The notes under the pieces were generated by a model. That model was not told where the DNA came from. It saw only the letters and a program-made list of their open reading frames with translations, and made no database searches. From Desulfomonilia bacterium (GTDB taxonomy: Bacteria > Desulfobacterota > Desulfomonilia > UBA1062), in NCBI GenBank assembly GCA_049975365.1, contig JBNGDS010000004.1, forward strand, positions 17,150 through 81,149: 64,000 nt of DNA, in the 5' to 3' direction. How positions within the stretch are numbered: the first letter of the stretch is position 1; each line of letters opens with the position of its first letter. Both the position numbers and the translations under genes were made by a program. Shown here piece by piece: positions 17,580 through 60,149 of this stretch.

Positions 17580-17597
17580 CGCACCGGAGGAGGTGGT

Positions 17598-28347: not shown

Positions 28348-28524
28348 GGCTTCCCCCTTTTCATGCATGATATGATTGACAGTTCAGGTGTAGCGGTATG
28401 GGTAAGGTTTGTCAACATTGGGCAGATCATATCATAAAACAGTAATTACCAGGCACACCGCAACAGCCGGTATTCCAGCAGAATTCGTACCATTCGGCCG
28501 AGGATCGGAAGATCTGCGGCCGAA

Positions 28525-29351: not shown

Positions 29352-30878
29352 TTACTGATCGAGACGGGGTGCCTTCATGACGTTCTCCATGAAGTGCTCC
29401 ACCTGTCTCATCATGTTGTCATGGGATACGATGCGCGGATCGCTCAGGTCGTAATCGAGGATGAGCAGAGGGATCCCCTTCTCTCGGCACTTCTCGCGCA
29501 GGATACCGTTCATGGCCTGGCCGCTCTTGCAGCCCACATGGTTGGCAACCAAGACCAAGTCGAGGTCGAACTGCTTCACCATGCGAAAGATGTCGTCCAG
29601 GTAGTTCTCCGCAGGCCCCCGGGTATGGCGGACCATGGGGCCATGCATGACGATCCTGCTCCATCCGCGCAGCATGGACTCGGGTGTCGAGGTGTCGATG
29701 GGCTCGAGGTGGTTATAGCTCATGCTGTCATTCAGGATGGTCAGGCCATAAGTGCGTTCCGTCCAGTTGAATATGTCGGGGAAATGGAGAAAGGGCGGGT
29801 TCCAGCACACTGCCCGATACCGTTCGTTCACCGTGGCCGGGAGATTGTCCTCTAGGTTCTTCCGGGCCAGCTTCACCAGACGCTCGAAGTGCTTCGTCGA
29901 CTCCCTGAATTCGGGGGTCACGTTGAAGTGCCAGAGATGGCTCAGCCAAACGGCCTCGGAGGCAAGGGGGGCAGGCCTGACCCGAAGCATGTCCCACAGC
30001 TCCAGCTCCAGTTCCAGCATACGGTTGCGGTTTTCGCACATCTGCCTGAAGCGATCCCAATCCATGCGGCCGGGCGTGTGCTGCTCGAGGAATGCGATCA
30101 TACCCTTCACGTCTTCAACGAAGAGGTCCACTGCGCGTTCTGTGTGAAAATGATACGGCACGTCGAGGCGATAGATGGGTATACCGAAGGCCCTCTGGAA
30201 GAAGGAGTACGATGCCGCGCCAGCATCACAGGGAAGGTTGGAGCTCACGATGGCCGTGCCCCCCGGCATGTGGCCCTTGAGAACCATGCCGATGGTCACC
30301 TTGGGAAGGCTGCATGAATCCGGATTGATCCCCTCATTCTCCGCCTCGTCTATGTATTTCAGACAGACATCAGGATCCAGCATGGGAAGGACTATACCCA
30401 TGGCCTCGAGCAGATAGCACCTCAGTCCCATTGCATGAGCGATGTCAGGAGGGACCAGATCTTCGTTCAGGACCAGGCGGTCGGGGTCGAAGAACATCTC
30501 CCTGAGCAGCCACACGGTTCCTGCTACAATGGTGTGCATGGTCATGCAGACTGCATCGTGATAGCGGCCGGTCCTCGCCTGGAGGAACCGTCTCGCCAGG
30601 GCGTTCACCTTCAGTAATGTCAGGATCCAGGGATTCCGGATGAGGGTCCGAATGGATCTTACCGGGCCGAGGGTGAAGATATATTCAATGAGAAACCTCA
30701 TGATGACTGCATAGTTGAGAAGCCAGTACCACATGTATACGGCCAGATCCCTGGGGCTCCGCGTGTGTACGAGGTATTGCGCCAGAGAGTTGTCCCAGAG
30801 TTTTATCCCTGTTTCCCTCAGACTGGCGACCAGGAATTTTATGACAGCAATCATATTCTTCACGCCCGGAATCCTCAT
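29352..30878 (-). CDS. 2-hydroxyacyl-CoA dehydratase/benzoyl-CoA reductase superfamily subunit (HgdA/BcrB-like), long form
   Basis: Conserved Cys positions (PCDAG...). Pairs with the adjacent HgdB-like gene. Start chosen at an internal ATG (MRIPGV...) to avoid overlapping the upstream gene; the upstream ATG at 30956 is possible. Confidence 0.65.
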   Translation of the reverse strand: MRIPGVKNMIAVIKFLVASLRETGIKLWDNSLAQYLVHTRSPRDLAVYMWYWLLNYAVIMRFLIEYIFTLGPVRSIRTLIRNPWILTLLKVNALARRFLQARTGRYHDAVCMTMHTIVAGTVWLLREMFFDPDRLVLNEDLVPPDIAHAMGLRCYLLEAMGIVLPMLDPDVCLKYIDEAENEGINPDSCSLPKVTIGMVLKGHMPGGTAIVSSNLPCDAGAASYSFFQRAFGIPIYRLDVPYHFHTERAVDLFVEDVKGMIAFLEQHTPGRMDWDRFRQMCENRNRMLELELELWDMLRVRPAPLASEAVWLSHLWHFNVTPEFRESTKHFERLVKLARKNLEDNLPATVNERYRAVCWNPPFLHFPDIFNWTERTYGLTILNDSMSYNHLEPIDTSTPESMLRGWSRIVMHGPMVRHTRGPAENYLDDIFRMVKQFDLDLVLVANHVGCKSGQAMNGILREKCREKGIPLLILDYDLSDPRIVSHDNMMRQVEHFMENVMKAPRLDQ

Positions 30879-30888
30879 GTTCAGTCGT

Positions 30889-32022
30889 TTATTTGCCAAG
30901 ACTCTCGATGAATGCCTGTACACGGGTACGCAGCTGGCCTTCTCCTCCGGTGGCATATTCCCGCTCGAGTTTCAGGACCGGCACGCCTTTCTTTCTGAGT
31001 GCACTGACCAGGGGCATGGTATCCACTCCCCAGAGATCACAGAACTTGATGATCTCAATGACCACGCCGTCTGCACGGTATTCCTCTACTGTGTCGAGGA
31101 TGTTTTCCAGCCGGCGATCGAAGTCCTCCATCATGCGGGGGCACAGGGTCTTCTTGAACGTGTGCTCGGCCAGGCACCTGATGGGATGTACGCCTTGTTC
31201 CACAGGCATGAGCCCGGGAATGGACCCGGTGCAGAACCGGTCGGCCACCACGAGCCCTCCCTGTGATTCGATGATGGCGATGAATGCAGGATCGTGCAGA
31301 TGCGCCCCAACCATCATGAGGCGTGCACGGTAGTCAGCATTCCCTTCTTCGTGTTCGATCTCCCTGTAGAATGACTCGATGGCGGGGAGGATCAGATCCT
31401 TCGGAGATGCGAGGGATGCCATGACGATCCGGTGAAAATCAGCTCCAGTCAGGGGGGGATGCAGTCTTTTCCTCAGGTCGCCTATAGAACGCATGATGCT
31501 GGAGAACCTGTTCCACCGGTCTATGGCCTCCTCGATGGAAGCAGTGCCCATATTGACACCGAAATAGTCAGAGAGTTTCTCCGCCAGGATCGAGAGTTCA
31601 TCGGCAAGCCATGAAGTGGTGACGTCGTTCACCTTGCGCGGCACGTCGATGACGTGACTGAAAGCCGGCTTCCTGAGGTATTCGAGGTTGTCTATGAGGC
31701 GCTGCATGTGAGCGCACGAAGGCACGAAGACCCACCCCTGGATGAGATCGTACCGGTCGTCCATAACAAACTCGAGCAGGCTGCGGGTATACGAACAGGT
31801 CAGCGACGACATGTAGTTGTCGGCGATCTCGGTCCCGGCAATTCCAGGGGCCATCAGACGAACCGGAAAGAGCCTGTCTGCCATGAGCAGCGCCTCGGGC
31901 ACGAAGGAACAGGAATACCCAATGGGTATGCGGCAGTCCTGTGAGGCCTGTTCGACAAGGGTGTTCTGAGGGCTTTCCAGGAGATCATCGAACAGGTGCA
32001 TGGTCTTGGTAGGCATCCTCAC
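30889..32022 (-). CDS. 2-hydroxyacyl-CoA dehydratase superfamily subunit (HgdB/BcrC-like)
   Basis: N-terminal IGYSCSFVPEALLMADRLFP and C-terminal IKFCDLWGVDTMPLVSALRKKGVPVLKLEREY match the HgdB pattern (GCLPYYVPEEL ... FCDPEE...GIP). Confidence 0.75.
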   Translation of the reverse strand: MRMPTKTMHLFDDLLESPQNTLVEQASQDCRIPIGYSCSFVPEALLMADRLFPVRLMAPGIAGTEIADNYMSSLTCSYTRSLLEFVMDDRYDLIQGWVFVPSCAHMQRLIDNLEYLRKPAFSHVIDVPRKVNDVTTSWLADELSILAEKLSDYFGVNMGTASIEEAIDRWNRFSSIMRSIGDLRKRLHPPLTGADFHRIVMASLASPKDLILPAIESFYREIEHEEGNADYRARLMMVGAHLHDPAFIAIIESQGGLVVADRFCTGSIPGLMPVEQGVHPIRCLAEHTFKKTLCPRMMEDFDRRLENILDTVEEYRADGVVIEIIKFCDLWGVDTMPLVSALRKKGVPVLKLEREYATGGEGQLRTRVQAFIESLGK

Positions 32023-32037
32023 AGCTACGTTCTCCCC

Positions 32038-32808
32038 TTATGTCAGTACGCCCATGGTTTCGAGGATGTGTTCAACAACGCCCAGGGTGGGGGAGGTGTC
32101 CGGGAGCTCCCTTAAAGACGTTCCCCTGAAATCGAAATCCCTGATGAGGTCGTCCTCTGCAATCCATCCGTAGATGGGTAGACCGGTCCTCGATCTGATG
32201 TCATTCACCTCTGCCTGGCTCTTCACCCGGTTGAGCACGAGCCCCAGGCTCCTGAAATCAACGGCCTTGTTGTCATGCGCAACATGGGCTATGGCGCCAA
32301 CAACTCCTAGACCTTTGGCCGAGGTGTCCGAGATGAGTACCAGGTGATCGACGGTCTTCATGACTCGGCGGTTGATCTGCTCCACACCTGCCTCGCCGTC
32401 AATGATGACCACATCGAACGCATAAGCAAGTTCTACAAGGATGTCCTTGAGCAGTGAATTAACCTTGCAGTAGCACCCTTCATCCTCCGGCCTTCCGATG
32501 GCGAGCATGGCAAACCCGTCCTGCTCGTGAAGCGCATCGAACACCTCGTAGTCGAGCTGCCTCAGTGTCTGTGGCGCTCCCTGTGATGTGCCTTTTCTGA
32601 TCTGGGAGATAAGCCCCTTTCTTATGTCGTCCACGGTTTTCCGGACAACCACCCCAAGGGCCACGGCAAGGCCGCACGCCGGGTCCGCATCGATGGCCAG
32701 GATCTTCCTGTTCCCGTTTTCGCTCAGAAGCTTCACCATGACGGCTGCCACTGAGGTCTTGCCTACACCCCCTTTGCCGCACAGCGCGATTCTCGTGGTA
32801 TCACTCAT
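32038..32808 (-). CDS. CooC/MinD/Mrp-family P-loop ATPase (putative metallocentre or Fe-S maturation ATPase)
   Basis: Deviant Walker A (CGKGGVGKTSVAA) and the IDADP motif. Length and pattern resemble CooC/AcsF-type ATPases. Confidence 0.8.
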   Translation of the reverse strand: MSDTTRIALCGKGGVGKTSVAAVMVKLLSENGNRKILAIDADPACGLAVALGVVVRKTVDDIRKGLISQIRKGTSQGAPQTLRQLDYEVFDALHEQDGFAMLAIGRPEDEGCYCKVNSLLKDILVELAYAFDVVIIDGEAGVEQINRRVMKTVDHLVLISDTSAKGLGVVGAIAHVAHDNKAVDFRSLGLVLNRVKSQAEVNDIRSRTGLPIYGWIAEDDLIRDFDFRGTSLRELPDTSPTLGVVEHILETMGVLT

Positions 32809-33538
32809 TTCTTGCCTCTCTCTTCTTGCTCTGCATAGAAAGCCTCATGGATTTGAGCTGCTCCGCATCGGCACATACATCCTGGTATTCGCAGGATTCG
32901 CAGTCGAAATCGAGCTCGAGGGCCATCTTGTCCATGGCCGCAATGATCCTTGCAGCCGGGGCGACGATTTCGCGCAGCTCAGTAACATCTTCGGGTGACG
33001 AGGTGACCATGATCACTTCCACGGATTGGACATAGTCCCTGGCGTGGAACAGCCTCATGAGTGCCGATGCGAGTATCTGCGTTGAGAATCCCGACTGGAT
33101 CGCCTCCCTGCTGATTCTGCACCACTCCTTCTGGTACTGGGACACGGCCCTGATCATGAACCCCTTCAGATCGAGGTCGTAACGGAGAAAGTCCATGTCA
33201 CGGTGCCGATCGTAAGTATTCTCTTCAGTGAAGCCGACCACCCCTGCCAGGACCACCTTTCCGAAGGGCAATGCCGGGTTCCCGGTTTCAGTGAAATCCG
33301 GACCGACGAGGGTGATACGTCCGTGCGAGACTTCGGCCAGGTCTCCCGACCAGAGCAGACTGCTCACTGATTCCACATCAGGGCTTCCCAGCTCGAGGCC
33401 CAGGTCTTCTTTCATCACGATGCCCCTGTGGCCGCCAACGGGCCAGGTGAATGCGGGGTGCTCCGACCAGCAGCGTTTATTCGGACGGGACTCGATGAAG
33501 TCACGCACTTTGTGGATGATGTCTAAGAAGAGTTCCAT
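32801..33538 (-). CDS. Hypothetical protein with C-terminal CxxCx5C motif, co-transcribed with CooC-like ATPase
   Basis: 245 aa with C-terminal DFDCESCEYQDVCAD. 8-nt overlap with the CooC-like gene. I do not recognise a family. Confidence 0.5.
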   Translation of the reverse strand: MELFLDIIHKVRDFIESRPNKRCWSEHPAFTWPVGGHRGIVMKEDLGLELGSPDVESVSSLLWSGDLAEVSHGRITLVGPDFTETGNPALPFGKVVLAGVVGFTEENTYDRHRDMDFLRYDLDLKGFMIRAVSQYQKEWCRISREAIQSGFSTQILASALMRLFHARDYVQSVEVIMVTSSPEDVTELREIVAPAARIIAAMDKMALELDFDCESCEYQDVCADAEQLKSMRLSMQSKKREARNE

Positions 33539-33555
33539 GTTACCGGATACAGTTC

Positions 33556-34341
33556 CTAGCTGTCCCTTGCAGCCATCTCACGTGCCATGACAGCCGCCCC
33601 CAGGGCGCCGATGATCTGAGGGTCAGTCTCCATCTTCCTGAGTTTCACCCCAAGGGCCTCTTCAAGGGCGCTGAACATGCCGATATTCTTCGCTACCCCG
33701 CCGGTCATGGTGATTTCTCTGGAGAGCTCGATCCCCTTGGCAAGGGATGCGACCCGGTGCGCCATGGCCCTGTGGAGGCCGTGGATGATGTCGGGGATAT
33801 CTCTGCCGTTGTTGATGAGGGAGATGATTTCCGTCTCGGCAAACACAACGCACTGGTTGGAGATCGTCACGGGATTCCGTGCCTGGAATGAAAGTTCACC
33901 CATGTCCTCGAGGCATACACCCAAAGCACTTGCCATGATCTCGAGAAATCTCCCGGTACCGGATGCACATTTATCGTTGTAGGCATAGCGGATCACGTTC
34001 CCGTTCTCATCCAGCCGGATGGCCTTGGCATCCTGCCCTCCGATGTCGATGACCATGCGGACCTCCGGGATGAGCCACTGGGCGCCCATCCCGTGGCAGG
34101 CGATCTCGGATTCGACTGCAGTGGAAAATGGGATGTGGTTTCTTCCATATCCGGTTCCGACGCAGGATTTGATCTCGCTCAGCGGTATACCTGCCTGTGC
34201 AAGGGCTGCACCCATAACTTCCCGGGCAGATTCTTCCGGCTCGGGGCGGGCGAGAATGACTTCAGAGGCAACGATGTCTCCGTTTTTCATGATGACGGCC
34301 TTGGCACTCAGGGATCCAACATCACATCCTGCAACGTACAT
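33556..34341 (-). CDS. BadF/BadG/BcrA/BcrD-type ATPase (HgdC-like), paralog 2; candidate BcrD-position subunit
   Basis: YVAGCDVGSLSAKAV N-terminus, length 261 aa. Last gene of the C-B-A-D-ordered set. Confidence 0.85.
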   Translation of the reverse strand: MYVAGCDVGSLSAKAVIMKNGDIVASEVILARPEPEESAREVMGAALAQAGIPLSEIKSCVGTGYGRNHIPFSTAVESEIACHGMGAQWLIPEVRMVIDIGGQDAKAIRLDENGNVIRYAYNDKCASGTGRFLEIMASALGVCLEDMGELSFQARNPVTISNQCVVFAETEIISLINNGRDIPDIIHGLHRAMAHRVASLAKGIELSREITMTGGVAKNIGMFSALEEALGVKLRKMETDPQIIGALGAAVMAREMAARDS

Positions 34342-34345
34342 CTGT

Positions 34346-35125
34346 TCACCCTCCTATCTTCTCACGCGCATACACAGCCGCACCCAGGGCTCCGACGAGC
34401 TGCGGATCGATCCTCAGACGCCGCACCTTCACGTCGAGCATCCGCTCGAGGGCAGCAACGACACCGGCATTCTTTGCCACTCCACCTGTCATGCAGACAT
34501 CCTTTTCCACACCCACACTGCGGGCCAGGATCGCCACTCTGGCAGCCATGGCCTGGTTGACGGCGGATGCGATATCGGCCTTGGATCGTTTTTCATTCAG
34601 GTGGTGAATGACTTCGGCCTGGGCCCACACCGTGCAGGTCGATGCGAGGGAGAGCGGGTTTTTTGCCTGGTGTGAAAGCCTTCCCAGTTCATCGAGTTCA
34701 AGACCCAGTATATGTGCCATCACCTCGAGAAACCGGCCAGTTCCGGCAGCGCACTTGTCGTTGGTAAAGAACTTTACCACGCCGCCTTTCGCATCGAGTT
34801 TTATTGCCTTGCAGTCCTGTCCGCCGACATCGATGACGGTCCTCGCTGTAGGCATGAGCCATTGTGCGCCTTTCGCATGACAGGTAATCTCTGAGACAGC
34901 CGTGCTCACGAACGGAATCCGTTCCCGTCCATAGCCGGTTCCTACACAGAACGTGATCGTGTCCATGGAAAGGCCCGCAGACGAGAGAGCGGCTTCCATC
35001 ACCTCGCGGGCGGATGCTTCAGGGTTGAACCCAGACCTGATGATCGCCTGGGACAGAACCCGTTTATTGTTGAGAATGACTGCCTTGGTGGTCAGAGAAC
35101 CCACGTCACAACCGGCAACAATCAT
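34346..35125 (-). CDS. BadF/BadG/BcrA/BcrD-type ATPase (HgdC-like), paralog 3; candidate BcrA-position subunit
   Basis: MIVAGCDVGSLTTKAV, 259 aa. GAGGAGG RBS lies inside the upstream small ORF. 4-nt gap to paralog 2. Confidence 0.85.
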   Translation of the reverse strand: MIVAGCDVGSLTTKAVILNNKRVLSQAIIRSGFNPEASAREVMEAALSSAGLSMDTITFCVGTGYGRERIPFVSTAVSEITCHAKGAQWLMPTARTVIDVGGQDCKAIKLDAKGGVVKFFTNDKCAAGTGRFLEVMAHILGLELDELGRLSHQAKNPLSLASTCTVWAQAEVIHHLNEKRSKADIASAVNQAMAARVAILARSVGVEKDVCMTGGVAKNAGVVAALERMLDVKVRRLRIDPQLVGALGAAVYAREKIGG

Positions 35126-35355
35126 GCGACTATCCTCCTCAGTTGAAAGAATTCGCTCGTTGTGTCTGTCAGGATCACGCTCATCATTAACCTGTCGCGA
35201 CAGCGCATTAGGTTGCAGATCCCAGGGACCGCGCTGGGCATGATACTCATGAGGTCGATGCGTTCAGAGACCGGCCGGTCCTGGTTCGGTGCATCATGGA
35301 TGATGGTTCCAAAGATATTCTCCTCCGGATACCTGAGATCCTGGTTCTCGTTCAT
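35122..35355 (-). CDS. Small hypothetical protein (77 aa), translationally coupled (ATGA) to the ATPase gene
   Basis: The ORF's TGA stop overlaps the ATG of the 34346-35125 gene, and its 3' end carries that gene's RBS. Weak own RBS (AAGGA). May be real or a read-through artefact. Confidence 0.3.
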   Translation of the reverse strand: MNENQDLRYPEENIFGTIIHDAPNQDRPVSERIDLMSIMPSAVPGICNLMRCRDRLMMSVILTDTTSEFFQLRRIVA

Positions 35356-35365
35356 CAACGCGTCC

Positions 35366-35608
35366 TTACAGGGTCATACTGATGCGTGCACCCTGCCTGA
35401 TCCTCTGGATATAGAGCTTCGAGCGCTCTTTCAGCACAACCATGTCCGTCTTGCGCTCGATGTACTGCAGTGCAGGGATGGCTTCTTCCCTGAACAGGGT
35501 CAGGCTGTCGATTGCCCGCTGCCGCTCCACCAGGACCCTGGAGCTGTCCATGGCAATGTTCTTCAAGACCTCGATTGCGATCGCTTCCTTCTCATTTTCC
35601 GTCTCCAT
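35366..35608 (-). CDS. Small hypothetical protein (80 aa), helical/charged
   Basis: AGGAGG RBS 6 nt upstream of ATG. Plausible composition. Sits between the HgdA-like and ATPase genes. Confidence 0.5.
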   Translation of the reverse strand: METENEKEAIAIEVLKNIAMDSSRVLVERQRAIDSLTLFREEAIPALQYIERKTDMVVLKERSKLYIQRIRQGARISMTL

Positions 35609-35727
35609 ACATCCTCCTGAACCTTATTCAGGCAACCCTGACAGACATCCGGATCTCGGATATCGGTTCCATCTCCTATCAGAGAGAGTGTATTCAGCCC
35701 CTATGACACCTGTGCTCGACATCCTTG

Positions 35728-37131
35728 TCATGTGCCGAGCCCCCGCAGGTGTATGAACTCGCTTATTTTGTCGGTCACAGCTTCCCATGACTGGACACGG
35801 TCGTCGAACGCATCTGCATAGAGAATCAGGGTCGGGATTCCGCTGCGCTCGAGATCCCGGGCATAGGATTTGACCATTCCCCAGGTGTTCCTGCACCCGA
35901 TGGTCCCAAAATAGGCCACGAAGTCTGCCTTCATGACCCTGGTCATGATGAGCGTGTCGTCGAGCCACATGTTGGGCGCGTCATACGGGCCCCGGATGGA
36001 TTTCACCATGGGCATGCGTGACATCTGCATAGCGAGCGAATCGATCATGTCCTCGAGGGTGTCTCGTTTCATCGTGAACACGGCATCTTCCCGTTCACTG
36101 CTGTAGGGTGCCTCGTCTTCCCAGAAGGTGCTCAGGATGCAGCCCAGGTGCGAGATCTCGTTGCGGTCAAGAAAAGACCACAGCCTCAGGTCCGTGGTGT
36201 AGTGATCGATGTAGGAAAAAAACCCCCGGAGGCGTTCTCTCCCTGTGCTCATGCCGGAGACCCCTCTGGCGGCGTTCTCTTTGATCCTTTTCAGCATGGA
36301 CCGGAGCAGATCGGTGAAGTCTTTCGTCCCCCCCATGAGAAAGTTCCCGGAGTAGAGAAAGAGGTTGAAGATCGGGGGGATGGGGGAGGGGACAAGCCGC
36401 TGAAATTCTGTGAATTCATTGATGAGTTCGGTCTGAAGCTCGATCTCGGCAACGATCTCCCTGAGCCTGTCGATATCCAGTCTGTTCCCTGTCTGCTCCT
36501 CGAGAAAGGATACAAGATTCATGAAATCCTGCCTGTGAAACATGCCGGCCCGCTCATCGGTTAAAGTCGGGGGGTAGCAGAGCTGGTAGAAGGGGATATC
36601 AAGGTACGCGGAGGCGAACGAGTAGGAGTTGGCGTTCGTATCGCAGATGCCGGGTGAATCGCAGATGATCATGTCAGGTCTGACCCCGAGCCCCGCCAGA
36701 TATGCGCCGAGGGCACCGCGCTGTGATGAACAGGATGTCTCGGTGAATCCCACCTCGCAGCAGTAGTCAAGGTATTCCCCGGTTCCACGCTGGAGTATGA
36801 ACGTGCCGAACACGGTCATGGGCTCAAGCAGGAGTGGAACGATATCGAAGGCGTACAGGATCGGTGGAGCGAAGCAGAAGGTTGTCATGGCCACTTTTCT
36901 GCCGTTGTCATGGGCAGAGAGGATGGTTTGCAGATAGTTTGCGAGGAGTTTCATGAGCAGAATACCCGGTTCTCCCTGGCGAATGATGGCATCAAGGGCA
37001 TCACGGAAATGGGGGATGAGACTGAGCAGCGTCTCATACTCCTTGGATGAACCGTCGTAGGTAACAGAGGCGTTCTCGATGATGCTCCAGATGTTCCAGT
37101 CGTAATTGTACTCTCTGGTTTCCCGTTTCAT
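35728..37131 (-). CDS. Benzoyl-CoA reductase/2-hydroxyacyl-CoA dehydratase superfamily subunit (HgdA/BcrB-like)
   Basis: 467 aa. VAMTTFCFAPPILYAFDIVPL and multiple conserved Cys (CDSPGICDT) follow the HgdA/BcrB architecture. Confidence 0.8.
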   Translation of the reverse strand: MKRETREYNYDWNIWSIIENASVTYDGSSKEYETLLSLIPHFRDALDAIIRQGEPGILLMKLLANYLQTILSAHDNGRKVAMTTFCFAPPILYAFDIVPLLLEPMTVFGTFILQRGTGEYLDYCCEVGFTETSCSSQRGALGAYLAGLGVRPDMIICDSPGICDTNANSYSFASAYLDIPFYQLCYPPTLTDERAGMFHRQDFMNLVSFLEEQTGNRLDIDRLREIVAEIELQTELINEFTEFQRLVPSPIPPIFNLFLYSGNFLMGGTKDFTDLLRSMLKRIKENAARGVSGMSTGRERLRGFFSYIDHYTTDLRLWSFLDRNEISHLGCILSTFWEDEAPYSSEREDAVFTMKRDTLEDMIDSLAMQMSRMPMVKSIRGPYDAPNMWLDDTLIMTRVMKADFVAYFGTIGCRNTWGMVKSYARDLERSGIPTLILYADAFDDRVQSWEAVTDKISEFIHLRGLGT

Positions 37132-37148
37132 GCGTCAATCCTTATCTT

Positions 37149-38282
37149 TTATGCAATCCTCTCCATGAAGGCATCCACGCGCATCTTAACCCTGCCTGTC
37201 TCAACCAGGGGACCGTATTCCCGTTCCATCCGCATACAAGGGATCCCGGCAGCCTCGAGGTCACGCTCGAAGATGCCGTTTTCCGAACCGTGGAGATCGC
37301 AGAAGCGTATGTTCTGCAGGATGACCCCGTCGATGCGGACCTCCTCTATCCGTTCCATGATGTAGGAGAGCCTGTCTCTGTAGCAGCCGAACATCCTGGG
37401 ACATGACTTGTGGCTGAGGTAGCGCTTCGCGAGGGCAAAGACAGGGTCTTCCTTCTCGTCAACGAGGTCCCGGTAGGACCGCGACCCGAAGCACATGGTG
37501 TCTGCCACCACGATGCCGCCGGATTCCTCGATCAGGCGGACAAATTCCAGGTCGTCGTTTGTGCTGCCCACGATCATGAGCCGTTTCCTGCCATCGAGAA
37601 CAGAGGGGGCCTCTTTGAGTTCAGAGATGACATTCTTAAGCAGGTCTGTATAGCGCTCCCTCGGCAGTGCAAACCCTGCGAGAATGACAGCCGTGGTATC
37701 CTCGCCGGTTATGGCAGGGGTATCAGATGCCCTCATCTCGTCGAGCTCGATGAGGAGTCTCCTTCCTTCGTTGTACAGTTTGATGGATTCTTTGAGTGCC
37801 TTCTTGGTGATCTTCACACCAAAGTGCTCCTCGATGCTCTTGATGAAGAGCTTCAGTTCGTCCACGAACCATGCAATGCTGTAGTCGGTCACCTTGTGTG
37901 GTACACCCATGTAGTGAAAGTATGAGGGCAGGACTCCGGGGTAGTCGTCTCCTGCCTTTCTCCAGCATTCGTCGAGCCTGCGCATGGAATCGCACCCGTT
38001 CATGATGATCGCCCCGTCGAGGAAGGTGTACGCACCTTGTCCGGCAAGCTGCAGGATGCACTTGGGAAAACTGCAGATAACCGGACCAAAGTAGGTGTCA
38101 CCGATGGACAGAGAGGTTGTCCCGATTCCGCGCATCCTGAAGGGCAGCATGCCTGCTGCGTGGATGATCTCTTCAGGCATATACGTGCACGGGTAGCCTA
38201 TGACCCTTTTCCCGGCATCCTTCCATTGGGTGACGTACTGGTTTGATATGCTCCGGGCGATGTCTTTGAGTTCGTTGATCAT
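37149..38282 (-). CDS. Benzoyl-CoA reductase/2-hydroxyacyl-CoA dehydratase superfamily subunit (HgdB/BcrC-like)
   Basis: 377 aa. VIGYPCTYMPEEIIHAAGMLPF ... IRFCDLHGSENGIFERDLEAAGIPCMRMEREYGP parallel HgdB (IGCLPYYVPEELVYAAGMVP ... FCDPEEMEYPDLKKALDAHHIP). Confidence 0.8.
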   Translation of the reverse strand: MINELKDIARSISNQYVTQWKDAGKRVIGYPCTYMPEEIIHAAGMLPFRMRGIGTTSLSIGDTYFGPVICSFPKCILQLAGQGAYTFLDGAIIMNGCDSMRRLDECWRKAGDDYPGVLPSYFHYMGVPHKVTDYSIAWFVDELKLFIKSIEEHFGVKITKKALKESIKLYNEGRRLLIELDEMRASDTPAITGEDTTAVILAGFALPRERYTDLLKNVISELKEAPSVLDGRKRLMIVGSTNDDLEFVRLIEESGGIVVADTMCFGSRSYRDLVDEKEDPVFALAKRYLSHKSCPRMFGCYRDRLSYIMERIEEVRIDGVILQNIRFCDLHGSENGIFERDLEAAGIPCMRMEREYGPLVETGRVKMRVDAFMERIA

Positions 38283-39565
38283 CTCTCACCCCCGGCGGCG
38301 AGCAGCACCTCTCTCAGACGCTGCAGTGCCTGGTCGTGTTCTTCATCTGCCATCCCTTCCCCGGGGCTCAGCACATCGGTGAGTCCTCGGACCAGAGAGG
38401 GCATCACTGCTTCGAGAACAGGACGGGCTGCATCGATAATTTCTGGAACGAACCACCGGGCAGTCTCCTTGACCTGATCCGGATCAACACAGTCAGCGAT
38501 GCTGTTCACGATGGTGGTGAGCATCTCGGGTCTGGTGTCATGAAGCGTGTTGACAAGGCGGAGAAACCCATTGATCACCTCGGCTATCTCGAAGGTGTCC
38601 AGGTCGGACAGGCCGTGTGCGAGAGCCTCTGCAAGAGCATTTCCGTCCACTTCCTCGAAGAGACGAACCTTTCGGGAAAGACCCCTGATTGCAGGTGTTT
38701 TCACAGACCCGTAAGCAGACACGAGCTCGATGAGGATTCCCGGGTTCTCCGACAGAGAGTCTGCCAGCGCATGGACCATGGCCTCCTTGTCTTCGGAAAG
38801 GGCGATACGGGCCTTCTTCAAAAGGACAGGATCGATATTCGGGAGTGCATCCTGGAACTGCTGGGTGAGGTACAGCTGGAACAGTGGTTTTCCTGCCTTT
38901 GCCAGGAGGTAGTTTCCTGTATGGAGTCTCCTGATGAGTTCACTCATCGAATTGACCAGGGTGGCTGCCTCACGGGCATCGATCCCTTTCAGCAGCGAGA
39001 GGGTGAGGTCTGCGAGCAGGTCTGGGCCCACCTTCTGTTCAATGGGGCGCAGGAGTTCTCGTACAGACCTGATGCCGGTATTGACAAGGGCGAGGAGCGT
39101 TGCCAGGATGCTCCCGACCTTGGCAGGGTATCTCCACAGGTGCTCGTTGAAGATCTCTACTGTCTTGAGGAAACACCCTTGTGACGATTCAGCAACCTCC
39201 CTGATCTCGCCGAAATCAGTGTTCTTCAGGAAGTCTTCGATAGCTTGTGAACGGCCGGCGGCATGGTACACCGGGTTGGATGCGTGCTCTGCGTTCACCT
39301 TTCGCGCCCACGAGGTGAGCAGACTGCCTACAGGCCCTGATATTCCCCTTCCAGAAACCCCTCCCGGATGGATTAACACCCGTGAGACGATCCGTTGCGC
39401 ACCGGAGGCGATCCGCTCCCTGGTTCTCCTTCCTGAAGCCCAGCCCCTGATCAGTTCTCCGGCAATGGAAGAGAGGAAGTATCTGGTGCCCGGAGACCGT
39501 ACGATGTCTGCAACGATCTTTGCCGAAGCTTCAGCGGGTGGCCCGAGATGTTCAGTGGTGTCCAT
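38279..39565 (-). CDS. Hypothetical protein, long member (428 aa) of a three-member paralogous family of unknown function
   Basis: Shares a roughly 130 aa region (FLKNTDFGEIREVAES...LWRYPAKVGSILATLLALVNTGIRSVRELL) with the 228 aa and 143 aa proteins downstream. 4-nt overlap with the HgdB-like gene. Confidence 0.5.
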   Translation of the reverse strand: MDTTEHLGPPAEASAKIVADIVRSPGTRYFLSSIAGELIRGWASGRRTRERIASGAQRIVSRVLIHPGGVSGRGISGPVGSLLTSWARKVNAEHASNPVYHAAGRSQAIEDFLKNTDFGEIREVAESSQGCFLKTVEIFNEHLWRYPAKVGSILATLLALVNTGIRSVRELLRPIEQKVGPDLLADLTLSLLKGIDAREAATLVNSMSELIRRLHTGNYLLAKAGKPLFQLYLTQQFQDALPNIDPVLLKKARIALSEDKEAMVHALADSLSENPGILIELVSAYGSVKTPAIRGLSRKVRLFEEVDGNALAEALAHGLSDLDTFEIAEVINGFLRLVNTLHDTRPEMLTTIVNSIADCVDPDQVKETARWFVPEIIDAARPVLEAVMPSLVRGLTDVLSPGEGMADEEHDQALQRLREVLLAAGGER

Positions 39566-40235
39566 GAATGGAGTCCTCCGTTTTTGTATGTATCTGTTTC
39601 TGAAGCGCTTTCATTCCCGCTTCGGTCAGGTATGATTCGAACATGGTCATACTCCCGTCAGTGAGTGTACTGATCGCATCCTCCCTGGTGAATTGTTCTT
39701 CCATGAGGTAGCTGTGTCCCAGGTGCATGGCCATGCCCACTACCGCATAGGCAAGGGTATGGGGATTCACTCCCTCGATGATGCCGATATCCAGCCACGT
39801 CTGGATATCGTTGGCCAGATCCCGGGCAATATCGCTGTAATGACGCCACACATTGTTGTCCAGTTCCTCGTCGACCCCGAAACTGCCCCTCAGGAGGATG
39901 AGAAACTGCTGGCGGTGGCCATCGATGTAATCGAAGTAGGCGGTAAATGTCTCGATGAGTTTGGCGTAGCGGTCGTCCCTGTCCCAGATATTCACGGGCT
40001 CTCTGAGTTTCCTGATCCGATCCCTGAAGTCTTCGAAGTTCTGCCTGGTTATCTGGGCAAAGAGTTCACGTTTGTCCTGGAAGTAGTTGTAGAATGTCCC
40101 TGCAGACATCCCCACCTTCTTGACAATGTCCATGACTTGAGTGTTGTGGTAGCCACGCTGGCTGAAGAGTTCCTCGGCAGCCTCTATGATCACCTCTTTG
40201 GTAAAGGTCCGTTTCTTGTCGGCCAGGGTTGGCAT
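39552..40235 (-). CDS. TetR/AcrR-family transcriptional regulator (paralog A)
   Basis: HTH region FSQRGYHNTQVMDIVKKVGMSAGTFYNYFQDKRELF. Start placed at ATG (MPTLADKK) after AGAAAGGAA. Paralog of the regulator at 44289-44954. Confidence 0.85.
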   Translation of the reverse strand: MPTLADKKRTFTKEVIIEAAEELFSQRGYHNTQVMDIVKKVGMSAGTFYNYFQDKRELFAQITRQNFEDFRDRIRKLREPVNIWDRDDRYAKLIETFTAYFDYIDGHRQQFLILLRGSFGVDEELDNNVWRHYSDIARDLANDIQTWLDIGIIEGVNPHTLAYAVVGMAMHLGHSYLMEEQFTREDAISTLTDGSMTMFESYLTEAGMKALQKQIHTKTEDSIHGHH

Positions 40236-40261
40236 GTCTGGTTCCTTTCTGTTCGCGGATT

Positions 40262-40948
40262 TCACGAACACTCCCAGCGGCGTATGTCCACGTGGTGTGT
40301 CTCTTTCCCAAATCGCCTTCGGATTCTCCTGCGCACGAGTTCCAGCACCCATGATCCGAACTTCCACTTCTGGTCCAGGAGCCCATCGGCAAGGGTGTGG
40401 GTTGCCGTTCCGATCTCGTGCCGGTCGAGACCTGCGAGCAGGTCTGAGAGAAACGTGCGGACGATGCCGGGCTCAGCGGTTTCGAGGGCATTGATTACCC
40501 TGGCCATGGAGTTGATGCCCTGGCTGAGGGACACAGGGCCTGTTTTCGTAATGGATGCTCTCATACTCTCCCGCTGAACGGTAGATGATGTCCACAGGCC
40601 CCCCAGCAGTTCCGACCACGTGTGCGAGCAGGCTTTCAGCCTCTCTGTGTCGATCTCGGAAGCGATGCTCAGAATGAAATGGCTCAGGAGTTCGGGTGGA
40701 AACTTCTCCTTGAGCTGTTCCCCCATCTCTGCACACGCATCCACCAGGGTATTGACCAGAGAGGGAAGGGCGCTGACCAGGGAGAGAAAGACCTCAGGGT
40801 CCTGCCACATGATGCTCCTCACCAATGAACTTCCCGAAGAGGACGTGGCCATTTTCAGACATGATCTGAGCTGATCCTTGCAGACCGGTGTCCTGAGAAC
40901 CTCTGTGAGAATACCGGGATCGATTTTTTTGCTCTGAGTGCTCGTCAT
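40262..40948 (-). CDS. Hypothetical protein, 228 aa member of the paralogous family
   Basis: Contains MWQDPEVFLSLVSALPSLVNTLVDA, closely matching LLWQDPEVILGLVGALPALANIVICA in the 143 aa paralog. Confidence 0.5.
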   Translation of the reverse strand: MTSTQSKKIDPGILTEVLRTPVCKDQLRSCLKMATSSSGSSLVRSIMWQDPEVFLSLVSALPSLVNTLVDACAEMGEQLKEKFPPELLSHFILSIASEIDTERLKACSHTWSELLGGLWTSSTVQRESMRASITKTGPVSLSQGINSMARVINALETAEPGIVRTFLSDLLAGLDRHEIGTATHTLADGLLDQKWKFGSWVLELVRRRIRRRFGKETHHVDIRRWECS

Positions 40949-41376
40949 GACGTCACCTCCCTGGGAGATTTCCCGGGCCCCTCAAGGGATTGGAATTTCT
41001 GTGCGACGATCGGGGATATCTGTTCGATGAGTGTTCGGCTCGAGCTCACGGCCCGGGCAAGGGTTTCGTGATCGATCTCATCGAGGAGGGATTCGATGAA
41101 CCCGTTCAGGAGCACGGGAGAGTATTTCTCTGTGACCTGCCTGACAAGCTCGTCGAGTGCGCAGATCACGATGTTTGCCAGAGCGGGGAGTGCACCCACA
41201 AGCCCGAGGATCACCTCGGGATCCTGCCAGAGCAGGGTTTTCACGAACTCCGGGCTGGCCTGGGGGTCGAGGTTTTTCAGGAACGCCCTCAGGTTGTCCT
41301 TGAAACCGGGCTTTTTCAGCAGTTCTTCAAGAATACGAGTGCCTGCATCGACAATGCCTCGTTCCTGGGTATGCAT
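40945..41376 (-). CDS. Hypothetical protein, 143 aa member of the paralogous family
   Basis: FLKNLDPQASPEFVKTLLWQDPEVILGLVGALPALAN. 4-nt overlap with the downstream paralog. Confidence 0.5.
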   Translation of the reverse strand: MHTQERGIVDAGTRILEELLKKPGFKDNLRAFLKNLDPQASPEFVKTLLWQDPEVILGLVGALPALANIVICALDELVRQVTEKYSPVLLNGFIESLLDEIDHETLARAVSSSRTLIEQISPIVAQKFQSLEGPGKSPREVTS

Positions 41377-41388
41377 GATCTGTACTCC

Positions 41389-42663
41389 TTACAGCGTCTC
41401 GCAGTTGAAGAAATAGCGGGCCGCCTCCATCTGACAGAGCTGTTTGCCTCCCATCCAGAGCTGGACCATCTTGATGTCTCTCCAGTGTTTCTCGATATCC
41501 CACTCGCGATCTGCTCCATTCTGTCCGAGAGCGTCCATGGCCTTTCCGAAGACATCCACCGCCCTGTCCGACACGAAGTCCTTGATGTTCCGCACTCTCC
41601 CCACAACGTCTTCGCTGATCAGGGGTTTTCCGTAAGGCTTGTTCCTCCGGTCGCAGATCATGGCCGCCTCGTATCCGAGGATTCTGCAGATGTCGATATC
41701 ACCTGCAATACGGCCGATGATGGCCGCTATTGCATCGTGTTCCTTCAGGGGACGGTTGTTGTACGTTCGTGTGGACACGAATTCATAGAGCCGTTCATAG
41801 AGGTTCATCATGGCACCGGTGAGAAATGCGACACTCATGACCTGGCCGAACGGGATGAGTTGGTAGAATGCCTCGGCATCCCTGCCCGGGCCGTGGGCCC
41901 GGTACCAGGACGGCACGCGCACGTCCTCGAACCAGATGTCACCGTTCTTGTCAGCGGCCATCCCGGCCTTTTCATATGCCCCGCCCTGGGTCACTCCCTT
42001 GGCATCGGCAGGGACGTAGATGAATGCAAAATCCTTCGGGTCGTCCGATCCGGGATTCGTCGTGCACGGAACACCAAAGAGCTGCGAGACACCCCCTGAA
42101 TTCGTGGGCCAGAGCTTGTGGCCGTTGATTACCCACTCATCGCCTTCCAGGCGCGCTGTTGTGCGGATGGTCTTCCCCTTGAGCAGGCCGAGGTTTTCGA
42201 TATCGGACCCGCCCTGGGGTTCGGTCATGGCGTTGGCGGCAAATACCGCTTTCTTCGAGGTGCAGAACATGGGTGCGAATTCAGCGATGAGCCTGTCGTT
42301 CACGTAGGGTTCGACGAGGATCACAAGCATGGGCCAGAATGTGACCCCCAGGGCAACCGCAAAGCCGGTATCTGCCCTGCCGAGCTCTTCGCAGAGCATG
42401 TAGCCGACCCTGAACACTGAATCGGAACCGGCGAGACCCCACCCGCCGTATTCCTGGGGAAAGAGGGCCTTCTGGAGACCGATCTCTCCCATGAGCCTGT
42501 CAAAGGCGGGTTCGATGAGGGCGTGATCCTTCCAGTCTTCATCATACTTGCGCCTGTGCGGCATGATGATTTCTTCAAGGAAACCCCTCAGGACAGCTCG
42601 AAAGTGCTTGTCGAACGGGGAAATATATTCATCCGGGCGTGAGAATTCATCGATATGGTTCAT
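41389..42663 (-). CDS. Acyl-CoA dehydrogenase family protein (paralog 1)
   Basis: Start placed at ATG (MNHIDEFSRPDEY) with GGGAGAG RBS; the 89-codon upstream extension in the track has no RBS and is Gly/Arg-rich. Shows the ACAD N/M/C domain pattern. Confidence 0.85.
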   Translation of the reverse strand: MNHIDEFSRPDEYISPFDKHFRAVLRGFLEEIIMPHRRKYDEDWKDHALIEPAFDRLMGEIGLQKALFPQEYGGWGLAGSDSVFRVGYMLCEELGRADTGFAVALGVTFWPMLVILVEPYVNDRLIAEFAPMFCTSKKAVFAANAMTEPQGGSDIENLGLLKGKTIRTTARLEGDEWVINGHKLWPTNSGGVSQLFGVPCTTNPGSDDPKDFAFIYVPADAKGVTQGGAYEKAGMAADKNGDIWFEDVRVPSWYRAHGPGRDAEAFYQLIPFGQVMSVAFLTGAMMNLYERLYEFVSTRTYNNRPLKEHDAIAAIIGRIAGDIDICRILGYEAAMICDRRNKPYGKPLISEDVVGRVRNIKDFVSDRAVDVFGKAMDALGQNGADREWDIEKHWRDIKMVQLWMGGKQLCQMEAARYFFNCETL

Positions 42664-42677
42664 GGCTTCTCTCCCTT

Positions 42678-43913
42678 TCAGATCTCTGTGCAGGCATTGA
42701 AAAACCGGCTGGTATCCATTCTGACCGGGCCCTCTGCTCCCACACCGGACAGCAGTGAGCCTATGGTTTTGACATCCCTCCAGTGCTTTTCTACGTGCCA
42801 TTCCTTGGAATAGCCCGCCGAACCCATGAGTTCCATTCCGCGGTTGATCGCCCTCAGGATGCCCTGCTGCACTCGGCACCCGATCATCTCCGCATAGGTG
42901 AACAGGTGAAGCAAACTGACCTGTCCCCATTCATCCGGTTTGGAGATGAGGTGAGCCAGATTGTACAACAGGAGCCGTGCAGTCGCGATCTCGTCCGCAG
43001 CATCGGCAAGCACAGATGCACAGAGAGGATTTTCCTTCAGGAGGCCGCCGCCCTTGATCACCCTGTTCTCGCTCCAGTCGCGGAAAATCTCGTAGGAGTT
43101 GATGCCTGCCCCGAGACTCACCCCGGAGAGCAGCAGGTTGAGCCAGGTGAAGAGCTCTTCCACTACGCCGTCACGGTCGATGAGGAATTCTTTCCCGATC
43201 TCCACGTCACTGAAGGTGACATCGGCATTCTCCAGGGCATTGAGGCCTGTTGTTTTGAAGGTCTTTCCCCGTTTGACACCAGGGGCATCACCAGGAATGA
43301 ACGCGATGCATGGTTTGTCCTTCTTTCCGGCGCAGACCACACAGAACATGTCTGCACGGGCGCCTGCAACAAGCGGCCTGAGGGTTTTCCCGGAGATGAC
43401 GTACCCACTTTTGACCGACTGTGCACGGGCAAGAATGGATCTTCCTTTGTACAAGGGGGTGTCCTGTCCAACGAACCCCGCACCGGGCAGGATGAGCGTG
43501 GGTGTCTTGATCTCGTCCGCCGTGTACAGGGGAGCCAGGGCATCGCAGAGTTTTCTGTTCAGGGTGTGACCCATGGTGATGGTGGCAAAGATCACATACT
43601 TGATGGCGGATGAAACCCCCATGGCTGCATCGGCCCTGCCGATCTCGCTTACAATCGTGAGCACGCCTGGTGCGTTCGCTGGGCTGTTCCACCCGAATCC
43701 GCCGTGTGTTGTTGGAAGCGTGAGCCTCTGGAGGCCGATTGTGAGGTTGAGCTGTTTCCGTTTATCCAGGAAGAGCTTTCCGTAGTTCTCGCGGTAGTCC
43801 ATCCGTTTCGAGAGGATCTCTTTTTCCGCCCACTGCCGTACCAGGTCAGAGACACTTCTGGATTCATCATCCATCCACTGCCTGGGGAAAAGAAACAGAT
43901 CGTCTGGATTCAT
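42678..43913 (-). CDS. Acyl-CoA dehydrogenase family protein (paralog 2)
   Basis: 411 aa ACAD fold. Its C-terminal tail (RFFNACTEI) resembles that of paralog 1 (YFFNCETL). First structural gene of the cluster. Confidence 0.85.
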   Translation of the reverse strand: MNPDDLFLFPRQWMDDESRSVSDLVRQWAEKEILSKRMDYRENYGKLFLDKRKQLNLTIGLQRLTLPTTHGGFGWNSPANAPGVLTIVSEIGRADAAMGVSSAIKYVIFATITMGHTLNRKLCDALAPLYTADEIKTPTLILPGAGFVGQDTPLYKGRSILARAQSVKSGYVISGKTLRPLVAGARADMFCVVCAGKKDKPCIAFIPGDAPGVKRGKTFKTTGLNALENADVTFSDVEIGKEFLIDRDGVVEELFTWLNLLLSGVSLGAGINSYEIFRDWSENRVIKGGGLLKENPLCASVLADAADEIATARLLLYNLAHLISKPDEWGQVSLLHLFTYAEMIGCRVQQGILRAINRGMELMGSAGYSKEWHVEKHWRDVKTIGSLLSGVGAEGPVRMDTSRFFNACTEI

Positions 43914-47814: not shown

Positions 47815-47889
47815 GCCAACGTAGCTCAGTGGTAGAGCAGCTGATTCGTAATCAGCCGGTCGACAGTTCAAATCTGTCCGTTGGCTCCA
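47815..47889 (+). tRNA. tRNA-Thr (anticodon CGU)
   Basis: Manual cloverleaf: acceptor GCCAACG/CGTTGGC, D-arm GCTC-AGTGGTAGA-GAGC, anticodon stem GCTGA/TCAGC with loop TTCGTAA (anticodon CGT), T-arm GACAG-TTCAAAT-CTGTC, discriminator T plus encoded CCA. Confidence 0.85.
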
Positions 47890-59782: not shown

Positions 59783-59783
59783 A

Positions 59784-60149
<366 letters not shown>

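Follow-up and report, generated by a model that had tools for sequence, protein, structure and literature searches.

Among the lowest-potential reactions in biology are those carried out by archerases, ATP-driven enzymes of which only a few have known substrates: the benzoyl-CoA reductases, the 2-hydroxyacyl-CoA dehydratases, DCCP and PlsAR. The known dehydratases use one homodimeric activator, and the PlsA plasmalogen synthase family has two tandem ATPase domains; the possession of two ATPases is thus not diagnostic of an arene reductase. Here we describe a gene cluster centred on positions 33556-38282, on the minus strand of a 64,000-nucleotide stretch of the Desulfomonilia contig JBNGDS010000004.1 (this whole stretch is hereafter the window), which encodes two catalytic pairs and three ATPases related to the benzoyl-CoA reductase/2-hydroxyacyl-CoA dehydratase (BCR/HAD) superfamily. 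We lean towards reading its core as an uncharacterised branch of BCR/HAD radical enzymes, driven by ATP through a proposed heterodimer of two ATPases. Judged from sequence comparison, the cluster probably encodes an ATP-driven reductase with a heterodimeric ATPase; it is not an orthologue of benzoyl-CoA reductase.

In the benzoyl-CoA reductase BzdNOPQ of Aromatoleum sp. CIB (PDB 8S02), the N subunit binds an [8Fe-9S] double cubane, assigned to two-electron storage, through C36/73/100/263/293/327, and the O subunit binds a [4Fe-4S]-OH2 cluster through C95/128/380 and contributes the catalytic pair Glu65 and His131 (Fuchs et al. 2025, PMC11971306). The family has been arranged as a series in which DCCP has two double cubanes, the benzoyl-CoA reductases one double cubane plus a [4Fe-4S] cluster, and the dehydratases a [4Fe-5S] plus a [4Fe-4S] cluster (PMC11971306). 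Other close systems are the 3-methylbenzoyl-CoA reductase MbdONQP (PDB 9GAI, 9G87), which has four subunits with short ATPases (MbdQ, 269 aa; MbdP, 273 aa); the 2-hydroxyisocaproyl-CoA dehydratase HadBC (PDB 3O3M, 4EHT), served by the single homodimeric activator HadI; and DCCP/DCCP-R of Carboxydothermus hydrogenoformans (PDB 6ENO, 7YYL), a homodimer with a single homodimeric ATPase. The catalytic and ATPase genes of the window, with the small open reading frames (ORFs) between them, are as follows.

37149..38282, minus strand: B1, an HgdB/BzdN-type subunit of 377 aa (PF06050, 310 bits)
35728..37131, minus strand: A1, an HgdA/BzdO-type subunit of 467 aa (PF06050, 148 bits)
35366..35608, minus strand: sm80, a conserved gene for a Cys-free protein of 80 aa (recognised by tblastn)
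35122..35358, minus strand: ORF of 77/78 aa, a remnant of A1' (two-piece alignment with A1')
34346..35125, minus strand: ATPase-1, an ASKHA 'archerase' of 259 aa (PF01869, 205 bits; TIGR00241, 247 bits)
33556..34341, minus strand: ATPase-2, 261 aa (PF01869, 193 bits; TIGR00241, 235 bits)
30889..32022, minus strand: B2, 377 aa (PF06050, 269 bits)
29352..30956, minus strand: A2, an ORF of up to 534 aa (PF06050, 177 bits), with the likely true start at 30878 giving 508 aa
28525..29340, minus strand: ATPase-3, 271 aa (PF01869, 181 bits)

The start of A2 at 30878 is the likely one from its overlap with B2 and from a 503-aa orthologue in a related locus, L021. An original prediction, made from the letters alone, had described the genes from B1 to ATPase-2 as a four-subunit module in BcrCBAD order. 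All the ORFs that it named exist on the minus strand at these coordinates, and the 4-nt gap between the two ATPase genes and the ATGA overlap at the ATPase-1 start are real. The four genes do run in the order B, A, ATPase, ATPase, but 33556-38282 is only the core of a larger conserved operon of roughly 25.1-43.9 kb. Pfam E-values of 1e-43 to 1e-92, together with synteny in more than 20 loci, rule out chance for the core genes.

For comparison, a genome scan with the 467-aa A1 sequence gave 20 loci, mainly from Desulfomonilia and 'Deltaproteobacteria' metagenome-assembled genomes (MAGs; Phox-21 and UBA1062 included), with further ones from Bacillota and Binatia MAGs. Look-ups by exact protein brought in L021 (from a 5.2-Mb genome), L022 (Desulfatibacillum AK-01, CP001322) and L024, for a total of about 24 related loci; the genes of L024 are frameshifted, and it was excluded from the Cys correlation test. 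Invariance is counted over 21 B1 orthologues, 30 A1 sequences, and 16 CdhC-like and 14 CooC-like accessory proteins. At E<=1e-30, A1 matches only 36 of 1.84 billion cluster representatives, many of them fragments. The window-locus genes are annotated as 'hypothetical' in a Desulfomonilia MAG. We found no literature description of this cluster in searches on Desulfomonilia or Phosphitivorax with BCR or HGD, on the AK-01 genes and on archerase networks; a 2026 benzene-degradation paper was set aside, as it concerns an unrelated VAO/PCMH flavoprotein.

The six Cys of the BzdN double cubane are all found in B1, where C32, C70, C97, C264, C294 and C328 align with BzdN C36, C73, C100, C263, C293 and C327. 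Likewise, R49, R268 and H331 align with BzdN R53, R267 and H330, and both sets are invariant in 21/21 orthologues. B1 is predicted to be the electron-storage subunit with an [8Fe-9S] double cubane, which would extend the BzdN-type cluster to a new lineage. The six columns are also all Cys in B2 of the window, L001-L003 and L021, whereas two of these Cys (the equivalents of C32 and C264) are missing from HadC and three from MbdN. In overall sequence, B1 is 29% identical to HadC, 28% to DCCP, and 27% to both BzdN and MbdN; it is sister to B2 (31% identity) on a branch of its own and does not group with BzdN.

In A1, the BzdO ligands C95 and C128 have their aligned counterparts in C134 and C163, and C413, which aligns with the cluster Cys of DCCP and A2, is taken as the equivalent of BzdO C380. 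The three [4Fe-4S] Cys are present in 30/30 A1 sequences, and the three cluster Cys are also aligned in A2, which is 23% identical to A1; the alignment with BzdO begins after BzdO residue 77, past Glu65 and Trp46. A1 is predicted to be the substrate-binding subunit with a three-Cys [4Fe-4S] cluster. Its E103 is invariant and aligns with a Glu of HadB. As a set, the aligned Cys of B1 and A1 follow the cofactor pattern of BzdNO and not that of HadBC.

A1 has further conserved Cys at C124 (30/30), C157 (28/30) and C86 (26/30), of which C86 occupies the BzdN C36 position, and an invariant Asp-His (D309/H310) stands where B subunits carry a distal-cluster Cys; with the distal sub-cluster gone, this site of A1 may bind another ligand. 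Membrane anchoring was considered for A2 and for the accessory protein unk428 (see below) and rejected, as neither has a 19-residue window above a Kyte-Doolittle mean of 1.6.

The ASKHA motifs and the two cluster Cys are intact in all three ATPases, and the bridging-cluster residues whose conservation the original prediction wanted checked in both tandem members are C125 and C164, invariant in ATPase-1 and in ATPase-2. Against the PDB, the three score 198-222 bits to HadI, MbdQ and HgdC (216-222 to HadI) and only 126-144 bits to MbdP. ATPase-1 and ATPase-2 are mutually closest relatives at 53% identity; each is 41-44% identical to MbdQ, HadI and HgdC (both window proteins 44% to MbdQ) and 31-33% to MbdP, and ATPase-3 is 41% identical to either of them. 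In a neighbour-joining tree of 43 sequences, with five PDB sequences as references alongside the NCBIfam scores, bootstrap values are 97% for the ATPase-1 clade, 98% for the ATPase-2 clade and 100% for their joint monophyly. MbdP/MbdQ is the sole reductase pair compared. The separate clades make the duplication older than the split of the sampled lineages, and their joint monophyly indicates that it was independent of the MbdP/MbdQ split. The two-ATPase architecture would thus have arisen at least twice, which offers a natural experiment on the usefulness of a heterodimeric activator.

Only 9 positions carry fixed differences between the two clades, and 7/9 fall within residues 161-175, a stretch that surrounds the second cluster Cys and takes in the helix starting there (hypergeometric p = 1.5e-8; 4e-6 after correction for the choice of window). 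W167 and Q169 are confined to ATPase-1, while ATPase-2, ATPase-3, HgdC, HadI, MbdQ, MbdP and DCCP-R have F and E. The same W167/Q169 versus F167/E169 signature occurs in L021 and AK-01, neither of which was used in defining it. From the HgdC and HadI structures, we take the helix after the second cluster Cys to face the bridging cluster at the dimer interface. Given that the fixed differences fall on this helix and that the tandem genes are spaced by -4 to +5 nt across loci, we infer that ATPase-1 and ATPase-2 form an asymmetric heterodimer.

The duplication is not missing from orthologous loci: every locus long enough to show it carries the ATPase tandem, the distant Bacillota and Binatia loci and AK-01 among them. 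L016-L018, which have a single B/A pair, still keep it, and all of the single-A loci (the window, L001-L003, L016-L018 and L021) retain both ATPases. Three ATPases for two catalytic pairs would, in the window by itself, weaken a simple two-per-pair reading. Across loci, ATPase-3 is restricted to those that bear B2/A2 (the window, L001, L002, L003 and L021). Hence ATPase-1 and ATPase-2 belong to B1/A1 (module 1), and one operon holds an internal contrast between a module with a tandem and a second module with a single activator. Among the 20 scanned loci, module 2 is absent wherever both first-module A copies are kept, and where module 2 is present there is one A only; that module 2 stands only beside a single-A first module suggests that it functionally replaces the extra A copy. 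Duplication of the A subunit has occurred repeatedly, giving at least three A clades in Desulfomonilia and a separate duplication in AK-01, always beside a single B. Such turnover fits a division in which A binds the substrate and B stores electrons.

The history of the A subunit also bears on the two small ORFs that the original prediction saw inserted between the catalytic and ATPase genes; the 80-aa one stands as a conserved gene, but the 77-aa one does not. For sm80, tblastn finds matches of 59-82% identity in 13 loci, each directly 3' of an A or B gene; a gene of 79 aa takes this position in L021. No related locus has an orthologue of the 77-aa ORF. This ORF matches residues ~207-267 (E 4e-9 to 6e-7, in a small search) and then ~444-465 of A1', the second HgdA paralogue that occupies its position in other genomes. 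It also contains the ribosome-binding site GAGGAGGA of ATPase-1, in addition to the ATGA overlap with the ATPase-1 start. Since it has no orthologue, aligns with A1' in two pieces and retains the start signals of ATPase-1, the ORF is what remains of a lost A' gene after internal deletion, and not itself a gene. In L001, the closest relative, even this remnant is gone.

The remainder of the operon consists of the following genes.

38279..39565, minus strand: unk428, an all-alpha protein of 428 aa and the first gene of the conserved core; translationally coupled to B1, whose start its stop overlaps by 4 nt
32801..33538, minus strand: CdhC-like protein, 245 aa (PF03598, 4.5e-11)
32038..32808, minus strand: CooC-like (CooC/MinD-like) ATPase, 256 aa (PDB 3kje, CooC1, 5.6e-15); its start overlaps the CdhC-like stop by 8 nt
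39552..40367, minus strand: TetR-family regulator (PF00440, 66 bits), with a likely start near 40235
40262..40948, minus strand: unk228 (unk428 family profile, 2.5e-19)
40945..41376, minus strand: unk143 (unk428 family profile, 2.4e-12)
41389..43913, minus strand: two adjacent acyl-CoA dehydrogenase genes (profile matches)
27535..28368, minus strand: enoyl-CoA hydratase, in the operon tail
26039..27538, minus strand: ADP-forming acyl-CoA synthetase alpha, in the operon tail
25107..26057, minus strand: radical SAM protein that closes the operon (PTO1314-family, 108 bits; DUF3463-like C-terminus)

The conserved order across loci is (TetR), unk428, B, A, (sm80, A'), ATPase-1, ATPase-2, CdhC-like, CooC-like, with the CdhC-like gene usually and the CooC-like gene often following ATPase-2. 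In most loci, AK-01 among them, the TetR gene immediately precedes unk428, and unk228/unk143 are conserved in 14 loci. The acyl-CoA dehydrogenase pair accompanies the cluster in 12-13 loci, placed downstream in L021. The enoyl-CoA hydratase, synthetase and radical SAM genes recur 3' of the core in L004, L010, L012 and L013, and L024 has a Succ_CoA_lig gene. In a scan of every ORF at 25-44 kb and in the flanks, none of the dch, had, oah or ferredoxin genes was found in the cluster, the only hydratase being the one generic enoyl-CoA hydratase. The downstream acyl-CoA dehydrogenase comes nearest to cyclohexane-1-carbonyl-CoA dehydrogenase, although its score of 100 bits is below the cutoff of 650. 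The operon context points to an acyl-CoA substrate, with acyl-CoA dehydrogenases, enoyl-CoA hydratase and CoA synthetase inside the operon; the distant loci do not require one.

The CdhC-like protein is a stand-alone homologue of the middle (A2) domain of acetyl-CoA synthase (ACS), its profile aligning to Moorella ACS residues 334-481. In a Foldseek search with its AF2 model (pLDDT 86.5), 23/23 significant matches are ACS, the best at 2.4e-11. It has no ACS A3 domain or A-cluster, ending 50 residues past the A2 match. A C-terminal CxxCx5C (C213/C216/C222) is invariant in 16/16 sequences and, by spacing, would sit about where the first A-cluster Cys would follow. The CooC-like protein has a deviant Walker A (GKGGVGKT) and a C112-x-C114 that aligns with the CYC motif of CooC1, the CxC being invariant in 14/14; by these motifs it appears to be a metallochaperone-type ATPase. 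With the ACS middle-domain fold, the pairing resembles that of ACS with AcsF, whereas here there is no CODH, corrinoid protein or A3 domain with Cys-Gly-Cys. To our knowledge, no archerase system associated with an ACS-like/CooC-like pair has been described before. A Pfam scan at E<=5 gave nothing usable for sm80, unk428, unk143 or unk228, and unk428 has no structural relative in the PDB and no Pfam family. A profile compared with 20 cluster proteins identifies unk228 and unk143 as small helical paralogues of parts of unk428. Possible roles for unk428, sm80 and the ACS-A2-like and CooC-like proteins, as conserved accessories, are scaffolding, CoA binding, or delivery of a metal or cluster.

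The three helical proteins share an undescribed all-alpha domain with the motif W-x-x-P...N...P-x-L-L...I-D. B1 also has extra Cys at C75, C106 and C349, invariant in 21/21 and in L021, and absent from BzdN, DCCP, HadC and B2. In B1 of AK-01, the sole intact locus with neither a CdhC-like nor a CooC-like gene, Ala replaces C75 and C349. These Cys may mark a metal site tied to the CdhC-like/CooC-like pair, AK-01 providing the one counter-example. The upstream acyl-CoA dehydrogenase is degenerate, with family models matching weakly (Pfam 22-42 bits), and the pair recalls heteromeric acyl-CoA dehydrogenases in which one subunit has lost flavin binding.

With two PF06050 subunits and PF01869 ATPases that carry two bridging Cys, the system falls within the BCR/HAD superfamily. 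No cluster protein reaches the cutoff of any Bcr, Bzd, Had or double-cubane NCBIfam equivalog. With the Bzd models (TIGR03190, TIGR03191 and TIGR03192), the BzdN score is 150 against 454, A1 has no match to BzdO, and BzdQ scores are 213 and 183 against 380. With the Bcr models the values are 145 against 421 for BcrC and 135-145 against 313 for BcrD, and with the Had models 179 against 700 for HadC and 35 against 750 for HadB. The best NCBIfam match is the double_cubane model NF040772, with 190 bits for B1 and 147 bits for B2 against a cutoff of 350. The original prediction had proposed a Bzd type with short ATPases or a new variant; short tandem ATPases of this kind do exist, as MbdQ and MbdP show, but the scores lie far below the Bzd cutoffs.

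Set beside BzdNOPQ, the locus has the same order (an N-like subunit, an O-like subunit and two ATPases of ~260 aa), the six [8Fe-9S] Cys with the R53/R267/H330 equivalents, and the three-Cys O-like site. It differs in the low identity of B1 to BzdN, in an Asn in place of His131, in having no P-type ATPase (both tandem members are Q/HgdC-like), in its separate ATPase duplication, in the absence of benzoyl-CoA pathway and ferredoxin genes, and in its extra unk428, sm80, ACS-A2-like and CooC-like proteins. MbdONQP resembles it in its four subunits and short ATPases, whereas MbdN keeps 3/6 Cys and MbdP and MbdQ are 38% identical as against 53% for the window pair. HadBC/HadI gives the top raw scores, and HadB, too, is without the BzdO His and has the conserved Glu that aligns with A1. 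It differs in its [4Fe-5S] remnant in HadC and in a 2-hydroxyacid context that is absent here, and in place of its single homodimeric activator our loci have a conserved tandem. DCCP shares the six-Cys motif with B1 and B2; here, in contrast to its homodimer and homodimeric ATPase, B pairs with an A subunit that has no distal ligands.

From these comparisons, the following mechanism can be proposed. An ATPase-1:ATPase-2 heterodimer would share a single bridging [4Fe-4S] cluster, with C125 and C164 of both chains as ligands. A low-potential donor would reduce this dimer, and ATP hydrolysis would push the electron into the [8Fe-9S] double cubane of B1, which would store electrons and hand them on to A1, at its three-Cys [4Fe-4S] cluster. 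The substrate, most likely an acyl-CoA, would be bound at A1 and reduced by radical chemistry. The A subunit would be exchangeable, A1, A1' and other paralogues being gained and lost beside one B and so tuning the substrate range. The divergent second module B2/A2 would be served by its own single ATPase-3, and the neighbouring enzymes of acyl-CoA metabolism (two dehydrogenases, a hydratase and an ADP-forming CoA synthetase) would process the substrate or the product.

Several observations weigh against this scheme. At the position of the catalytic His131 of BzdO, A1 has an invariant Asn (Asn166) and A2 a Gly. The double cubane of DCCP works with a homodimeric ATPase, and MbdN is a true reductase subunit without a double cubane; neither the double cubane nor the two-ATPase trait is thus diagnostic of a reductase. 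B1 and the ATPases score as close to HadC and HadI as to reductases. The window cluster has no ferredoxin gene, and distant loci have a GMC flavoprotein and Fer4 proteins instead of CoA-metabolism genes, so that a CoA-ester substrate is not certain. Finally, strict anaerobes usually avoid ATP-costly reductases of the class I type (PMC11971306).

The same genes could encode a redox-neutral radical enzyme of the 2-hydroxyacyl-CoA dehydratase type, in which the electron is recycled and the ATPases serve for activation only. Its best PDB matches would suit this, as they include HadC (158.6 bits, above BzdN at 148.6) and HadI, with A1 scoring best against HadB, which also lacks the BzdO His; the enoyl-CoA hydratase and acyl-CoA dehydrogenases would in turn suit enoyl-CoA products. 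Yet B1 and B2 hold the six double-cubane Cys where HadC has two fewer, the tandem is strictly conserved where known dehydratases have one homodimeric activator, both Had scores are far from their cutoffs, and there is no 2-hydroxyacid dehydrogenase or CoA-transferase gene in the cluster. We consider a dehydratase rather improbable, and favour an ATP-coupled reductase over it only moderately, given the homodimeric ATPase of DCCP, the MbdN subunit that lacks a double cubane and the two ATPase domains of PlsA. A true class I (Bzd-type) reductase that dearomatises benzoyl-CoA or another aryl-CoA is far more doubtful. The gene order, short ATPases, six-Cys motif, R53/R267/H330 equivalents and the dehydrogenase nearest to cyclohexane-1-carbonyl-CoA dehydrogenase all recall such an enzyme, but the Bzd and Bcr scores fall far short, a P-type ATPase is lacking, the ATPase duplication is independent of MbdP/MbdQ, B1 has only 27% identity to BzdN and groups apart from it, His131 is replaced, and the dch, had, oah and ferredoxin genes are missing. 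Benzoyl-CoA is therefore an unlikely substrate, as His131 is absent, pathway genes are absent and scores are low. Of the original prediction of an ATP-dependent, Birch-like reductase, the ATPase tandem beside B1/A1 is borne out as conserved, and the double-cubane pattern of B1 agrees with the prediction. Reduction of benzoyl-CoA itself finds no support, since the cluster has no dch, had, oah or ferredoxin genes. The two ATPases on which the prediction leaned are not diagnostic of an arene reductase.

The pairing of the ATPases can also be questioned. ATPase-1 and ATPase-2 might be separate homodimeric activators with different clients, such as the A1- and A1'-enzymes or another enzyme, and many loci do pair two A paralogues with two ATPases, each of which has complete ATP-binding and cluster motifs, as do HgdC and HadI. 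We regard this as unlikely, for both ATPases persist in single-A loci, module 2 comes with ATPase-3 as its activator, the -4 to +5 nt spacing suggests equimolar co-translation, and the fixed differences are concentrated on the cluster helix instead of being spread protein-wide. Less probable still is a non-CoA substrate, for a DCCP-like small-molecule reductase or a PlsA/PlsR-like lipid-modifying enzyme. It draws on the double-cubane reductase model as the best NCBIfam match of B1 and B2, on the GMC flavoprotein and Fer4 genes that replace CoA enzymes at distant loci and in AK-01, and on the architecture of the PlsA family with its two ATPase domains; but loci of the Desulfomonilia type consistently have acyl-CoA dehydrogenases, enoyl-CoA hydratase and ADP-forming CoA synthetase, the B/A heterodimer with a three-Cys A matches the CoA-ester enzymes BzdNO and HadBC, and the ACS A2-like protein stems from a CoA-handling enzyme.

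The ATP-driven reductase with a heterodimeric ATPase, which we prefer, could tentatively be taken further. It is possible, if speculative, that the cluster represents a third, independently evolved architecture for ATP-driven, low-potential BCR/HAD reductases, with an asymmetric heterodimeric archerase (W/Q versus F/E), a double-cubane store, interchangeable substrate subunits and dedicated accessories, suited to a hard reduction of a non-aromatic or unusual acyl-CoA in strict anaerobes. If so, the accessories, which have not been reported with this family, would be a new helical protein family represented three times, a protein built on the ACS middle domain that carries a Cys triad, and a chaperone of the CooC type; the chaperone would imply a step dependent on nickel or another metal, or a dedicated cluster maturation. 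The link between an archerase system, a chaperone of this type and a protein with an ACS domain may be relevant to the assembly of such clusters or to a hidden metal site. Desulfatibacillum strain AK-01, cultured and genome-sequenced, has a close version of the cluster (ACL06569-ACL06574), which opens the system to experiment, and the differences on the cluster helix are open to mutagenesis.

Some minor features of the loci may be added. A GMC-family flavoprotein gene lies directly upstream of the core in L016 (6230-7534), L018 (3802-5157), L022 (8016-9350) and L024 (8558-9892); its product is short (~434-451 aa), is 52-63% identical between loci, and stands where the window has the acyl-CoA dehydrogenase pair (Bacillota, delta-proteobacterial and Desulfatibacillum loci). 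A 436-aa Fer4 protein is encoded in L001, L013 and L021 (in L001 and L021 between A2 and ATPase-3), and L017 and L018 encode distant homologues of ~375 aa. The window cluster has neither of these proteins. The radical SAM gene is found again after the core in L004, L010 and L012 specifically.

Beyond ~25.1-43.9 kb, an ORF scan of the flanks shows unrelated genes. Rfam and tRNA scans gave no riboswitch near the operon, their only match being a tRNA-Thr(CGT) at 47815-47889 (plus strand). The unrelated neighbours include a ZnuABC-type metal ABC transporter (16611-19191, plus strand), a multi-PAS sensor adjoining a kinase/receiver protein (21853-24731, minus strand) and a GlnD-like uridylyltransferase next to an ammonium transporter (58094-61355, minus strand).

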